This document shows positions 915-7,813 of a stretch of 64,000 bases of DNA, piece after piece; positions within the stretch are counted from its first letter, which is position 1; each line of letters begins with the position of its first letter. The notes under the pieces were generated by a model. That model was not told the origin of the DNA. It ran no database searches and saw nothing but the letters and a program-made list of their open reading frames with translations. Location: assembly GCF_003018255.1 (NCBI RefSeq), contig NZ_CP027440.1, one strand, 5' to 3'. The translations under genes and the position numbers were made by a program. The DNA is from Escherichia coli. Lineage in GTDB: Bacteria; Pseudomonadota; Gammaproteobacteria; Enterobacterales; Enterobacteriaceae.

Positions 915-2231
915 ATGGCTGATTACCAGGGTAAAAATGTCGTCATTATCGGCCTGGGCCTCACCGGGCTTTCTTGCGTGGACTTTTTCCTCGCTCGCGG
1001 TGTGACGCCGCGCGTTATGGATACGCGTATGACACCGCCTGGCCTGGATAAATTACCCGAAGCTGTAGAACGCCACACTGGCGGTCTGAATGATGAATGG
1101 CTGATGGCGGCCGATCTGATTGTCGCCAGTCCCGGTATTGCACTGGCGCATCCATCCTTAAGCGCTGCCGCTGATGCCGGAATCGAAATCGTTGGCGATA
1201 TCGAGCTGTTCTGTCGTGAAGCACAAGCACCGATTGTGGCGGTCACCGGTTCTAACGGCAAAAGCACGGTCACCACGCTAGTGGGTGAAATGGCGAAAGC
1301 GGCGGGGGTTAACGTTGGTGTGGGTGGCAATATTGGCCTGCCTGCGTTGATGCTGCTGGATGATGAGTGCGAACTGTACGTGCTGGAGCTGTCGAGCTTC
1401 CAGCTTGAAACCACCTCCAGTTTACAGGCGGTAGCAGCGACCATTCTGAACGTGACTGAAGATCATATGGATCGCTATCCGTTTGGTTTACAACAGTATC
1501 GTGCAGCAAAACTGCGCATTTACGAAAACGCAAAAATTTGCGTGGTTAATGCTGATGATGCCTTAACAATGCCGATTCGCGGTGCGGATGAACGCTGCGT
1601 CAGCTTTGGCGTCAACATGGGCGACTATCACCTGAATCATCAGCAGGGTGAAACCTGGCTGCGGGTGAAAGGCGAGAAAGTGCTGAACGTGAAAGAAATG
1701 AAACTTTCCGGGCAGCATAACTACACCAATGCGCTGGCGGCGCTGGCGCTGGCAGATGCCGCAGGGTTACCGCGTGCCAGCAGCCTGAAAGCGTTAACCA
1801 CATTCACTGGTCTGCCGCATCGCTTTGAAGTTGTGCTGGAGCATAACGGTGTGCGCTGGGTTAACGATTCAAAAGCGACCAACGTCGGCAGTACGGAAGC
1901 GGCGCTGAATGGCCTGCATGTAGACGGCACGCTGCATTTGTTGCTGGGTGGCGATGGTAAATCGGCGGACTTTAGCCCACTGGCGCGTTACCTGAATGGC
2001 GATAATGTACGTCTGTATTGTTTCGGTCGGGACGGCGCGCAGCTGGCGGCGCTACGCCCGGAAGTGGCAGAACAAACCGAAACCATGGAACAGGCGATGC
2101 GCTTGCTGGCTCCGCGTGTTCAGCCGGGCGATATGGTTCTGCTCTCCCCGGCCTGTGCCAGCCTTGATCAATTCAAGAACTTTGAACAACGAGGCAATGA
2201 GTTTGCCCGTCTGGCGAAGGAGTTAGGTTGA
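915..2231 (+). CDS. murD: UDP-N-acetylmuramoylalanine--D-glutamate ligase MurD
   Basis: 438 aa, [22 protein letters not shown]-terminus, GSNGKST P-loop (Mur ligase); synteny. Confidence 0.96.
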
Positions 2232-3475
2232 TGCGTTTATCTCTCCCTCGCCTGAAAATGCTGCGCCTGCCAGGATTCAGTATTCTGGTCTGGATCTCCA
2301 CGGCGCTAAAGGGCTGGGTGATGGGCTCGCGGGAAAAAGATACCGACAGCCTGATCATGTACGATCGCACCTTACTGTGGCTGACCTTCGGCCTCGCGGC
2401 GATTGGCTTTATCATGGTGACCTCGGCGTCAATGCCCATAGGGCAACGCTTAACCAACGATCCGTTCTTCTTCGCGAAGCGTGATGGCGTCTATCTGATC
2501 CTGGCATTCATTCTGGCGATCATTACGCTGCGTCTGCCGATGGAGTTCTGGCAACGCTACAGTGCCACGATGCTGCTCGGATCTATCATCCTGCTGATGA
2601 TCGTTCTGGTAGTGGGTAGCTCGGTTAAAGGGGCATCGCGTTGGATCGATCTCGGTTTGCTGCGTATCCAGCCTGCGGAGCTGACAAAACTGTCGCTGTT
2701 TTGCTATATCGCCAACTATCTGGTGCGTAAAGGCGACGAAGTACGTAATAACCTGCGCGGCTTCCTGAAACCGATGGGCGTAATTCTGGTGTTGGCAGTG
2801 TTACTGCTGGCACAGCCAGACCTTGGTACGGTGGTGGTGTTGTTTGTGACTACGCTGGCGATGTTGTTCCTGGCGGGAGCGAAATTGTGGCAGTTCATTG
2901 CCATTATCGGTATGGGCATTTCAGCGGTTGTGTTGCTGATCCTCGCCGAACCGTACCGTATCCGCCGTGTTACCGCATTCTGGAATCCGTGGGAAGATCC
3001 CTTTGGCAGCGGCTATCAGTTAACGCAATCGTTGATGGCGTTTGGTCGCGGTGAACTGTGGGGACAAGGTTTAGGTAACTCGGTACAAAAACTGGAGTAT
3101 CTGCCGGAAGCGCACACTGACTTTATTTTCGCCATTATCGGCGAAGAACTGGGGTATGTCGGTGTGGTGCTGGCACTTTTAATGGTATTCTTCGTCGCTT
3201 TTCGCGCGATGTCGATTGGCCGCAAAGCATTAGAAATTGACCACCGTTTTTCCGGTTTTCTCGCCTGTTCTATTGGTATCTGGTTTAGTTTCCAGGCGCT
3301 GGTTAACGTAGGCGCGGCGGCGGGGATGTTACCGACCAAAGGTCTGACATTGCCGCTGATCAGTTACGGTGGTTCGAGCTTACTGATTATGTCGACAGCC
3401 ATCATGATGCTGTTGCGTATTGATTATGAAACGCGTCTGGAGAAAGCGCAGGCGTTTGTACGAGGTTCACGATGA
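2228..3475 (+). CDS. ftsW: Peptidoglycan glycosyltransferase / lipid II flippase FtsW (SEDS family)
   Basis: 415 aa polytopic membrane protein overlapping murD stop; exact start (2228 vs 2231) ambiguous; synteny. Confidence 0.93.
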
Positions 3476-4539
3476 GTGGTCAAGGGAAGCGATTAATGGT
3501 GATGGCAGGCGGAACCGGTGGACATGTATTCCCGGGACTGGCGGTTGCGCACCATCTAATGGCTCAGGGTTGGCAAGTTCGCTGGCTGGGGACTGCCGAC
3601 CGTATGGAAGCGGACTTAGTGCCAAAACATGGCATCGAAATTGATTTCATTCGTATCTCTGGTCTGCGTGGAAAAGGTATAAAAGCACTGATAGCTGCCC
3701 CGCTGCGTATCTTCAACGCCTGGCGTCAGGCGCGGGCGATTATGAAAGCGTACAAACCTGACGTGGTGCTCGGTATGGGCGGCTACGTATCAGGTCCAGG
3801 TGGTCTGGCCGCGTGGTCGTTAGGTATTCCGGTTGTGCTTCATGAACAAAACGGTATTGCGGGATTAACCAATAAATGGCTGGCGAAGATTGCCACCAAA
3901 GTGATGCAGGCGTTTCCAGGCGCTTTCCCTAATGCGGAAGTGGTGGGTAACCCGGTGCGTACCGATGTGCTGGCGCTGCCGTTGCCGCAGCAACGTTTGG
4001 CTGGACGTGAAGGTCCGGTTCGTGTGTTGGTAGTGGGTGGTTCCCAGGGCGCACGCATTCTTAACCAGACAATGCCGCAGGTTGCTGCGAAACTGGGTGA
4101 TTCAGTCACTATCTGGCATCAGAGCGGTAAAGGTTCGCAACAATCCGTTGAACAGGCGTATGCCGAAGCGGGGCAACCGCAGCATAAAGTGACGGAATTT
4201 ATTGATGATATGGCGGCGGCGTATGCGTGGGCGGATGTCGTCGTTTGCCGCTCCGGTGCGTTAACGGTGAGTGAAATCGCCGCGGCAGGACTACCGGCGT
4301 TGTTTGTGCCGTTTCAACATAAAGACCGCCAGCAATACTGGAATGCGCTACCGCTGGAAAAAGCGGGCGCAGCCAAAATTATCGAGCAGCCACAGCTTAG
4401 CGTGGATGCTGTCGCCAACACCCTGGCCGGGTGGTCGCGAGAAACCTTATTAACCATGGCAGAACGCGCCCGCGCCGCATCCATTCCGGATGCCACCGAG
4501 CGAGTGGCAAATGAAGTGAGCCGGGCTGCCCGGGCGTAA
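3472..4539 (+). CDS. murG: UDP-GlcNAc:lipid I N-acetylglucosaminyltransferase MurG
   Basis: 355 aa, [27 protein letters not shown]-terminus; 4-bp overlap with ftsW. Confidence 0.96.
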
Positions 4540-4592
4540 TTGTAGCGATGCCTTTTGCATCGTATGAATTTAAGAAGTTAATGGCGTAAAGA

Positions 4593-6068: not shown

Positions 6069-6981
6069 TAAAATCGCGGTCCTGTTGGGTGGGACCTCCG
6101 CTGAGCGGGAAGTTTCTCTGAATTCTGGCGCAGCGGTGTTAGCCGGGCTGCGTGAAGGCGGTATTGACGCGAATCCTGTCGACCCGAAAGAAGTCGACGT
6201 GACGCAACTGAAGTCGATGGGCTTTCAGAAAGTGTTTATCGCGCTACACGGTCGCGGCGGTGAAGATGGCACGCTGCAGGGCATGCTCGAGCTGATGGGC
6301 TTGCCTTATACCGGCAGCGGAGTGATGGCATCTGCGCTTTCAATGGATAAACTACGCAGCAAACTTCTGTGGCAAGGTGCCGGTTTACCGGTCGCTCCGT
6401 GGGTAGCGTTAACCCGCGCAGAGTTTGAAAAAGGCCTGAGTGATAAGCAGTTAGCAGAAATTTCTGCTCTGGGTTTGCCGGTTATCGTTAAGCCGAGCCG
6501 CGAAGGTTCCAGTGTGGGAATGTCAAAAGTAGTAGCAGAAAATGCTCTACAAGATGCATTAAGATTGGCATTTCAGCACGATGAAGAAGTATTGATTGAA
6601 AAATGGCTAAGTGGGCCGGAGTTCACGGTTGCGATACTCGGTGAAGAAATTTTACCGTCAATACGTATTCAACCGTCCGGAACCTTCTATGATTATGAGG
6701 CGAAGTATCTCTCTGATGAGACACAGTATTTCTGCCCCGCAGGTCTGGAAGCGTCACAAGAGGCCAATTTGCAGGCATTAGTGCTGAAAGCATGGACGAC
6801 GTTAGGTTGCAAAGGATGGGGACGTATTGACGTTATGCTGGACAGCGATGGACAGTTTTATCTGCTGGAAGCCAATACCTCACCGGGTATGACCAGCCAC
6901 AGCCTGGTGCCGATGGCGGCACGTCAGGCAGGTATGAGCTTCTCGCAGTTGGTAGTACGAATTCTGGAACTGGCGGACTAA
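6061..6981 (+). CDS. ddlB: D-alanine--D-alanine ligase B
   Basis: 306 aa, [23 protein letters not shown]; ATP-grasp fold; overlaps murC 3' end by 8 nt. Confidence 0.96.
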
Positions 6982-6982
6982 T

Positions 6983-7813
6983 ATGTCGCAGGCTGCTCTG
7001 AACACGCGAAACAGCGAAGAAGAGGTTTCTTCTCGCCGCAATAATGGAACGCGTCTGGCGGGGATCCTTTTCCTGCTGACCGTTTTAACGACAGTGTTGG
7101 TGAGCGGCTGGGTCGTGTTGGGCTGGATGGAAGATGCGCAACGCCTGCCGCTCTCAAAGCTGGTGTTGACCGGTGAACGCCATTACACGCGTAATGACGA
7201 TATCCGGCAGTCGATCCTGGCATTGGGTGAGCCAGGTACCTTTATGACCCAGGATGTCAACATCATCCAGACGCAAATAGAACAACGCCTGCCGTGGATT
7301 AAGCAGGTGAGCGTCAGAAAGCAGTGGCCTGATGAATTGAAGATTCATCTGGTTGAATATGTGCCGATTGCGCGGTGGAATGATCAACATATGGTAGACG
7401 CGGAAGGAAACACTTTCAGCGTGCCGCCAGATCGCACCAGCAAGCAGGTGCTTCCAATGCTGTATGGCCCGGAAGGCAGCGCCAATGAAGTGTTGCAGGG
7501 CTATCGCGAAATGGGGCAGATGCTGGCAAAGGACAGATTTACTCTGAAGGAAGCGGCGATGACCGCGCGGCGTTCCTGGCAGTTGACGCTGAATAACGAT
7601 ATTAAGCTCAATCTTGGCCGGGGCGATACGATGAAACGTTTGGCTCGCTTTGTAGAACTTTATCCGGTTTTACAGCAGCAGGCGCAAACCGATGGCAAAC
7701 GGATTAGCTACGTTGATTTGCGTTATGACTCTGGAGCGGCAGTAGGCTGGGCGCCCTTGCCGCCAGAGGAATCTACTCAGCAACAAAATCAGGCACAGGC
7801 AGAACAACAATGA
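6983..7813 (+). CDS. ftsQ: Cell division protein FtsQ
   Basis: 276 aa, single TM ([24 protein letters not shown]), synteny between ddlB and ftsA. Confidence 0.95.

Follow-up and report, generated by a model that had tools for sequence, protein, structure and literature searches.

Stop/start overlaps in the distal dcw operon of Escherichia coli and the case for partial translational coupling

The distal dcw operon and its junctions

The stretch of DNA analysed here – hereafter the window – comprises 64,000 nucleotides (nt) of an Escherichia coli contig (NZ_CP027440.1, assembly GCF_003018255.1), and its positions 1-10284 are the distal half of the chromosomal dcw operon (mraY′ to ftsZ), with the gene boundaries of strain K-12. 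In a six-frame listing of open reading frames (ORFs), plus-strand genes run without a break from the left window edge to 10284; the ORFs, together with the way in which K-12 and the closest genome are annotated, place these in the collinear, one-strand order mraY-murD-ftsW-murG-murC-ddlB-ftsQ-ftsA-ftsZ, and in the same two annotations ftsZ is followed by lpxC-secM-secA, the usual chromosomal context of dcw. The gene identities proposed in a first-pass annotation of the window were correct: MurD, FtsW, MurG, MurC, the D-Ala-D-Ala ligase, FtsQ, FtsA, FtsZ and LpxC all score far above the curated cut-offs of their NCBIfam equivalog or subfamily models. The cluster and its stop/start overlaps are already known, both having been described and annotated in E. 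coli for decades; our concern is with four of these overlaps and with what they may mean for translation.

All genes of the cluster lie on the plus strand, and their junctions were read directly from the sequence and then checked against RefSeq as annotated for K-12 MG1655 and for the closest genome. The 3′ part of mraY (1-912), truncated by the left window end, stops with TAA at 910-912, a boundary identical in K-12; two nucleotides on, in the arrangement TAAtcATG (spacing +2, no overlap), begins murD (915-2231; 438 amino acids, aa; TIGR01087, 434 bits). The murD stop (TGA, 2229-2231) shares one base with the ftsW start (ATG, 2231-2233), forming TGATG at 2229-2233 (−1), and ftsW (2231-3475; 414 aa; NF008042, 850 bits), which carries the substitution P11L, overlaps murG (3472-4539; 355 aa; TIGR01133, 377 bits) by the four bases ATGA at 3472-3475 (−4). 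The sole real gap within 2228-7813 is the 53-nt spacer that follows (4540-4592, +53), 100% identical to that of K-12, which separates murG from murC (4593-6068; 491 aa; TIGR01082, 611 bits). The stop of murC overlaps the start of ddlB (6061-6981; 306 aa; NF002378, 439 bits) in ATGACTGA at 6061-6068 (−8); ddlB and ftsQ (6983-7813; 276 aa; NF008043, 558 bits) stand one nucleotide apart in TAAtATG at 6979-6985 (+1, no overlap), as they do in 11 of 13 Enterobacterales; and ftsQ overlaps ftsA (7810-9072; 420 aa; NF007009, 913 bits) in a second ATGA at 7810-7813 (−4). The last gene of the cluster, ftsZ (9133-10284; 383 aa; TIGR00065), begins 60 nt after ftsA (+60). The overlaps had initially been put at 4-8 nt throughout, which holds for ftsW/murG (4), murC/ddlB (8) and ftsQ/ftsA (4), whereas murD and ftsW share a single nucleotide and not four.

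Comparison with K-12 coordinates, which the first-pass annotation had named as the check on its account, was run, and order and boundaries are equal. The MG1655 cluster (b0088-b0094, NC_000913.3 97087-105244) shares genes, order and lengths with the window; its junctions (−1, −4, +53, −8, +1, −4, +60) are those given above, and all gene boundaries in the cluster agree with the RefSeq annotation both of K-12 and of the closest genome, strain JNE23-011. The labels "conserved cluster" and "ordinary" were both apt. DNA identity to MG1655 is 98.5% over 12.1 kb (178 substitutions and zero indels within genes), the FtsA, FtsZ and LpxC proteins are identical, and the proteins of the cluster differ by 0-4 residues each. 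Of 5426 complete E. coli genomes, 5422 cover positions 1-12100 in full (100%); over this interval JNE23-011 is separated from the window by four substitutions and by a single T of a poly-T tract. That tract (11365-11373, in the lpxC-secM spacer) is T9 in the window and in K-12, and T8 in JNE23-011. An origin from E. albertii, suggested by a MurC that is 100% identical to the E. albertii protein, is ruled out by DNA identity (91.9%, as against 98.5% to K-12). The overall significance of the locus is small, in that the window reproduces long-annotated overlaps base for base.

The cluster is nonetheless unusually compact, above the genome average, although the overlap types themselves are the most ordinary ones. 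Four of the eight dcw junctions in the window overlap, compared with 4 of the 34 other co-directional junctions (Fisher p=0.03). Six of the eight fall at −8 to +6 nt, a range that takes in 707 of 2987 unidirectional E. coli gene pairs (~24%; Huber et al. 2023, PMC10666635; binomial p=0.003), and for the full K-12 cluster the count against the same baseline is 10 of 14 (p=0.0002). Across all prokaryotes, overlaps of −4, −1 and −8 rank as the three most frequent types (PMC12548453).

The initiation regions of ftsW, murG, ddlB and ftsA all lie within the preceding ORF. We took the strength of each Shine-Dalgarno (SD) motif as its duplex energy with the 3′ end of 16S rRNA, for which the background is −3.0 ± 2.1 kcal/mol. 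The strongest in the cluster is the GGAGG of ddlB (6047-6051, inside murC; −9.5 kcal/mol), followed by the AAGGAG of ftsW (2217-2222, in the last murD codons; −8.3 kcal/mol), which is conserved across Enterobacterales but also encodes the conserved MurD C-terminus, and by the GAGG of murG (3462-3465, inside ftsW; −6.6 kcal/mol), present as GAGG or GGAG in most of 14 Enterobacterales junctions. The motif upstream of ftsA is weak (−4.2 kcal/mol). The murD/ftsW junction is also the sole one whose predicted fold is more stable than that of shuffles (100 nt, z=−2.3), the other three overlaps having no special local structure (z −0.5 to +0.8). In the predicted, hypothetical hairpin (2213-2252, plus strand) GGCGAAGGAG would pair with CUCCCUCGCC (ftsW codons 4-8), leaving the UGAUG stop/start in the loop and hiding the ftsW SD, with a predicted probability of 0.57 that the SD is paired. 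The sequence of 2213-2252 is conserved in Enterobacteriaceae, and both arms encode conserved peptides.

Within 2228-7813 no match reached the Rfam gathering threshold, promoter-like and terminator-like matches were at or below shuffle expectation (a consensus promoter scan gave 5 sites against 9.2 expected), and the repeats comprise short chance matches and one motif shared by the paralogues murD and murC.

Conservation of the overlaps and of the ftsA leader

The persistence of each overlap was followed through 80 gammaproteobacterial loci, obtained with their flanks from one MurC scan of species-representative genomes, in which orthologues were placed by tblastn. An overlap was called obligatory where homology to the downstream protein begins before the upstream stop and no later start is available, impossible where an in-frame stop blocks it, and ambiguous in the remaining loci. 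These classes replaced a nearest-start heuristic for junction distances, which was unreliable in distant taxa (it contradicted the Pseudomonas murC/ddlB class, for example).

The ftsW/murG overlap is obligatory in all 14 Enterobacterales (as ATGA in 13) and in 34 other loci, and impossible in 4; its spacing across lineages takes the values −1, −4, −8, −11 and −14. For murC/ddlB the overlap is obligatory in 11 of 13 Enterobacterales (−8 in 8 of the 13), with 23 obligatory and 5 impossible cases elsewhere, and spacings of −8, −1, −14, −44 and +8 occur; the 44-nt overlap belongs to Providencia, and arises because the murC stop is placed later. At murD/ftsW, Enterobacterales show 11 obligatory and 2 ambiguous cases (−1 in 12 of 13, as TGATG or TAATG), and the other loci 11 obligatory, 6 impossible and 41 ambiguous. 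Judged from this comparison, the ftsW/murG and murC/ddlB overlaps are evidently old and persistent while their length drifts, and the murD/ftsW overlap is one kept within Enterobacterales. The murG/murC junction has a 53-nt gap in the window but an overlap in Pseudomonas and relatives. In loci from Vibrionaceae and Shewanella (L016-L020, L022, L023, L025-L028 and others of the sample) no ddlB was found in the interval from murC to ftsQ.

The ftsQ/ftsA overlap is labile. Among 15 Enterobacterales it is obligatory in 7 and impossible in 8, which have lost it, and the other loci comprise 13 obligatory and 35 impossible cases; even within Enterobacterales, then, conservation does not extend to this overlap. 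Enterobacterales that lack the overlap have a spacing either of +2 or of +36 to +156: it is +36 to +83 nt in Pectobacterium, Photorhabdus, Providencia and an Enterobacterales metagenome-assembled genome, and +156 in an Orbaceae genome.

A feature that does persist at this junction is the sequence ahead of ftsA. The 25 nt before the ftsA start (7785-7809, …CAGGCACAGGCAGAACAACA; with an equivalent in loci L010-L013) are conserved across Enterobacterales. In E. coli, Enterobacter and Citrobacter they encode the C-terminal tail of FtsQ; in Pectobacterium, Photorhabdus and Providencia, where FtsQ ends 36-53 nt earlier, they are spacer, and the sequence 5′ of ftsA (…AGGCAGAACAACAATG) is kept as non-coding RNA. 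Because the leader is retained as non-coding sequence where FtsQ stops earlier, it would seem to be a conserved element in its own right, which suggests that the constraint is on the ftsA leader and not on FtsQ, the tail of E. coli FtsQ merely reading into it.

Coupling between neighbouring genes

On the established account of E. coli, Pmra drives co-transcription of the dcw genes, and further promoters lie inside ddlB, ftsQ and ftsA. A central issue is whether the overlaps within this transcript make the translation of one gene depend upon that of its neighbour, the initial description having called them consistent with translational coupling. As regards geometry that description stands: spacings of −1, −4, −8 and −4 lie within the range shown for other E. 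coli pairs. Synthesis rates, on the other hand, speak against a simple one-to-one hand-over of ribosomes.

Six junctions of the cluster fall within coupling range (−8 to about +6), namely the four overlaps together with those at +2 and +1, and coupling is most efficient at −4 to +3 nt (PMC12548453). Of five native E. coli −4 pairs put to the test, four were coupled, with a need for the SD that varied by pair (Huber et al. 2019, PMC6728339). The coupled pairs – hyfHI, astDB, ydbH/ynbE as well as menDH (PMC6728339) – and trpB-trpA resemble the dcw pairs in being co-directional, in overlapping as ATGA or TGATG, and in carrying the SD within the upstream ORF. For those pairs coupling has been measured, whereas the dcw pairs are known here from their geometry; and, unlike those pairs, dcw neighbours are made in unequal amounts and are mostly not subunits of one complex.

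The extent of this inequality is apparent from the ribosome profiling of Li et al. 2014, in the values quoted by later authors. Egan and Vollmer (PMC4428075) quote copies in minimal/complete medium of 117/293 for FtsW, 147/336 for FtsQ and 575/984 for FtsA; according to Shirakawa et al. (PMC10214165), MurC-F and MraY are similar, and relative to the Mur ligases MurG stands at ~50% and FtsW at 20-25%. By these quoted rates output drops by a factor of 4-5 from murD to ftsW, roughly doubles from ftsW to murG and increases by a factor of 3-4 from ftsQ to ftsA. The expectation that a downstream gene is made no faster than its upstream neighbour thus holds from murD to ftsW and fails, again in the quoted rates, at two of the four overlaps (MurG exceeds FtsW, and FtsA exceeds FtsQ). 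In a kasugamycin translatome ddlB is the sole gene of the set that is listed, with an average value.

Taken together, these data lead us to favour, with a probability of roughly 0.85, a reading in which conserved compaction of the operon gives partial, not stoichiometric, translational coupling. Ribosomes finishing an upstream gene would keep the downstream initiation region unfolded, and some of those that terminate may reinitiate downstream. Most of the output of ftsW, murG and ddlB would nevertheless come from de novo initiation at their own intragenic SDs (AAGGAG, GAGG and GGAGG), while ftsA, with its weak SD, would also be reached by transcripts from the promoters inside ddlB and ftsQ. 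Such a mixture could let one long transcript give very different amounts of neighbouring proteins. Overlap in dcw is not to be equated with stoichiometric coupling, precisely because the neighbouring proteins are made in very different amounts. The corrected length of the murD/ftsW overlap, the unequal output and the differing stability of the overlaps are relevant to any recoding or refactoring of this essential operon.

Several considerations weigh against partial coupling. The literature searched contained no report of coupling at these dcw junctions, which leaves room for any degree of it, including none. The synthesis rates are second-hand, being those of Li et al. 2014 as cited in two other papers. 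Moreover, per-gene rates also reflect internal promoters and mRNA processing, and a downstream excess alone does not exclude coupling on the full-length transcript. Nor do finer tests lend support to the hairpin at 2213-2252, the one local RNA structure that might enforce coupling: 7 of its 13 pairs are invariant and its covariation score lies below the shuffle mean, and in a 65-nt window its stability is indistinguishable from that of shuffles.

Of the alternatives to partial coupling, the one that survives best – unlikely, in our judgement – is that there is no functional coupling at all: the overlaps would be neutral products of start/stop drift and deletion bias in an old operon, each gene using its own ribosome-binding site. 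A strong or moderate SD does stand before three of the four overlapping starts, the lengths of the ftsW/murG and murC/ddlB overlaps turn over between lineages, the ftsQ/ftsA overlap has been lost repeatedly, and bioBF, the remaining one of the five tested −4 pairs, is uncoupled (PMC6728339). Yet the ftsW/murG and murC/ddlB junctions continue to overlap in lineages whose MurC is only ~60% identical, the other four of those native pairs are coupled, and a ribosome terminating a few nucleotides from a start codon would necessarily unfold the region.

Somewhat less likely again is a composite account, in which the murD/ftsW hairpin acts as an attenuator and the ftsQ/ftsA overlap is an accident of FtsQ reading into the conserved ftsA leader. 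On the attenuator model ftsW may be translated solely when a ribosome terminating on murD opens the stem, which, if true, would hold FtsW at ~1/4 of the MurD level. The parallel is with coupling of the atpHA type (Rex et al. 1994, as described in PMC5230787), where an SD-occluding mRNA structure is unfolded, and a similar hairpin is predicted at murD/ftsW. In contrast to atpHA, the murD/ftsW structure is predicted, lacks covariation support and is marginal against shuffles, and the other three dcw overlaps are devoid of such structure. We therefore dropped an SD-occluding hairpin as a supported structure, given the lack of covariation support and the marginal stability, and treat it as hypothetical: an idea, not a finding.

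Strict termination-reinitiation at all four overlaps, by which each downstream protein would be made in amounts no greater than the upstream one and the stoichiometry of neighbours would be fixed, we consider very improbable. It has in its favour spacings (−4, −1 and −8) that are enriched in, and have been shown to allow, termination-reinitiation (PMC6728339, PMC12548453, PMC10666635), a weak ftsA SD of the kind expected of a start that needs delivered ribosomes, and an FtsW level that, at the quoted 20-25% of MurD, is compatible with inefficient reinitiation. However, the quoted rates put FtsA at 3-4 times FtsQ and MurG at ~2 times FtsW; since downstream exceeds upstream at these two overlaps, strict termination-reinitiation cannot be the sole route. 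The partners, furthermore, are not fixed 1:1 subunits of a complex, MurD being a cytosolic ligase, FtsW a membrane polymerase, and MurC and DdlB separate enzymes; and ftsQ and ftsA lie +36 to +156 nt apart in several Enterobacterales, with the ftsA leader kept where it is readable.

Finally, the geometry at murD/ftsW depends upon where ftsW starts. The first-pass start at 2228 is a TTG one codon 5′ of the ATG, the first possible start in the ORF, and would yield a 4-nt TTGA overlap. Evidence favours ATG 2231, because RefSeq and K-12 both annotate this start (414 aa), AAGGAG stands 8 nt before it, the N-terminus that it produces (MRLSLPRL, spanning residues 1-9) is conserved as protein in Enterobacteriaceae, and the TGATG or TAATG junction is itself conserved; in alignments the junction ATG and AAGGAG are retained also in those sequences whose FtsW is shorter by 10-20 residues at the N-terminus. 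We hence regard as the least probable of the alternatives a start at TTG 2228, or one at Met10 (2258) or Met31 (2321), which would abolish the overlap: TTG 2228, for all that it is the earliest possible start, is absent from the annotation and, among the 12 relatives with the −1 junction preserved, reads CTG, CTA or TTA in 10; Met10, although the NCBIfam model NF008042 begins at that residue, has no SD (+0.4 kcal/mol) and gives way to Val or Leu in Citrobacter, Klebsiella sp. and Enterobacter sp. Ag1; and Met31, despite an SD-like GGGUG/AAGGG context (−6.9 kcal/mol), is Ile or Val in Photorhabdus. TTG 2228 was accordingly dropped, as were Met10 and Met31 as main start on the evidence of SD and residue conservation. 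Two possible ftsW starts were reportedly described by Khattar and colleagues in 1994.

A separate matter is the P11L substitution in FtsW, by which the window differs from K-12. It results from C2262T in codon 11, within the cytoplasmic N-terminal tail, and Pro11 is conserved in those Enterobacteriaceae that have the tail. A 61-mer spanning the site has zero exact matches in 5422 complete RefSeq E. coli genomes, and 53 public contigs, one of them of 4.89 Mb, encode the identical 414-aa protein. P11L is a rare natural allele; its presence on those contigs rules out a sequencing error or a novel mutation.

Other features of the window

An antisense ORF of 393 aa (9094-10275, minus strand) spans the whole of ftsZ in codon register. 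In both the window strain and K-12 ftsZ is without TTA, CTA and TCA codons, of which neighbouring genes have 3-17; these triplets are the reverse complements of stop codons, and their absence is the reason for the ORF, which is a codon-usage shadow and not a gene. The region from the 3′ end of ftsA to the start of ftsZ (9052-9141, plus strand) gives a full-length match to RF02797, PssrA (plasmid-encoded Shigella small RNA A), at 105 bits against a gathering threshold of 69. K-12 annotates the antisense RNA StfZ over the same junction, and the name of the family seems at odds with a chromosomal ftsA-ftsZ location. Further full-length Rfam matches are to STnc40 (14788-14857, plus strand), from the secA 3′ end to the mutT start; to naRNA4/CssrE (15373-15450, plus strand), a REP (repetitive extragenic palindromic)-type element after mutT; and to tp2 (30621-30734, minus strand), between pdhR and aceE.

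All 64 kb are collinear with JNE23-011 and near-identical to it over 1-16.5 kb and 20.4-41 kb. Patches of divergence at 16.5-20.3, 41.7-53.9 and 58.1-59.3 kb cover coaE-guaC-hofC-hofB and acnB…yadE, the strongest being a fimbrial adhesin-like gene adjoining yadL; they look like recombination mosaicism. Small differences in length near 55.64-55.70 kb lie beside a frameshifted transposase remnant.

Between aroP and pdhR, at 25900-29356 on the plus strand, lies what has the look of an Hcp-borne toxin locus bearing displaced toxin-tip/immunity cassettes in an array; GC content falls to 0.385 at 28-30 kb. It comprises a 593-aa fusion of Hcp (the tube protein of the type VI secretion system) with an S-type pyocin domain and a colicin/pyocin DNase domain, then a colicin/pyocin immunity gene, and two orphan fragments of DNase C-termini (28136-28372 and 28826-29065), which are paired with immunity genes of their own at 28375-28668 and 29066-29356, respectively. 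The exact 593-aa fusion protein is widespread in E. coli, occurring on 205 contigs.

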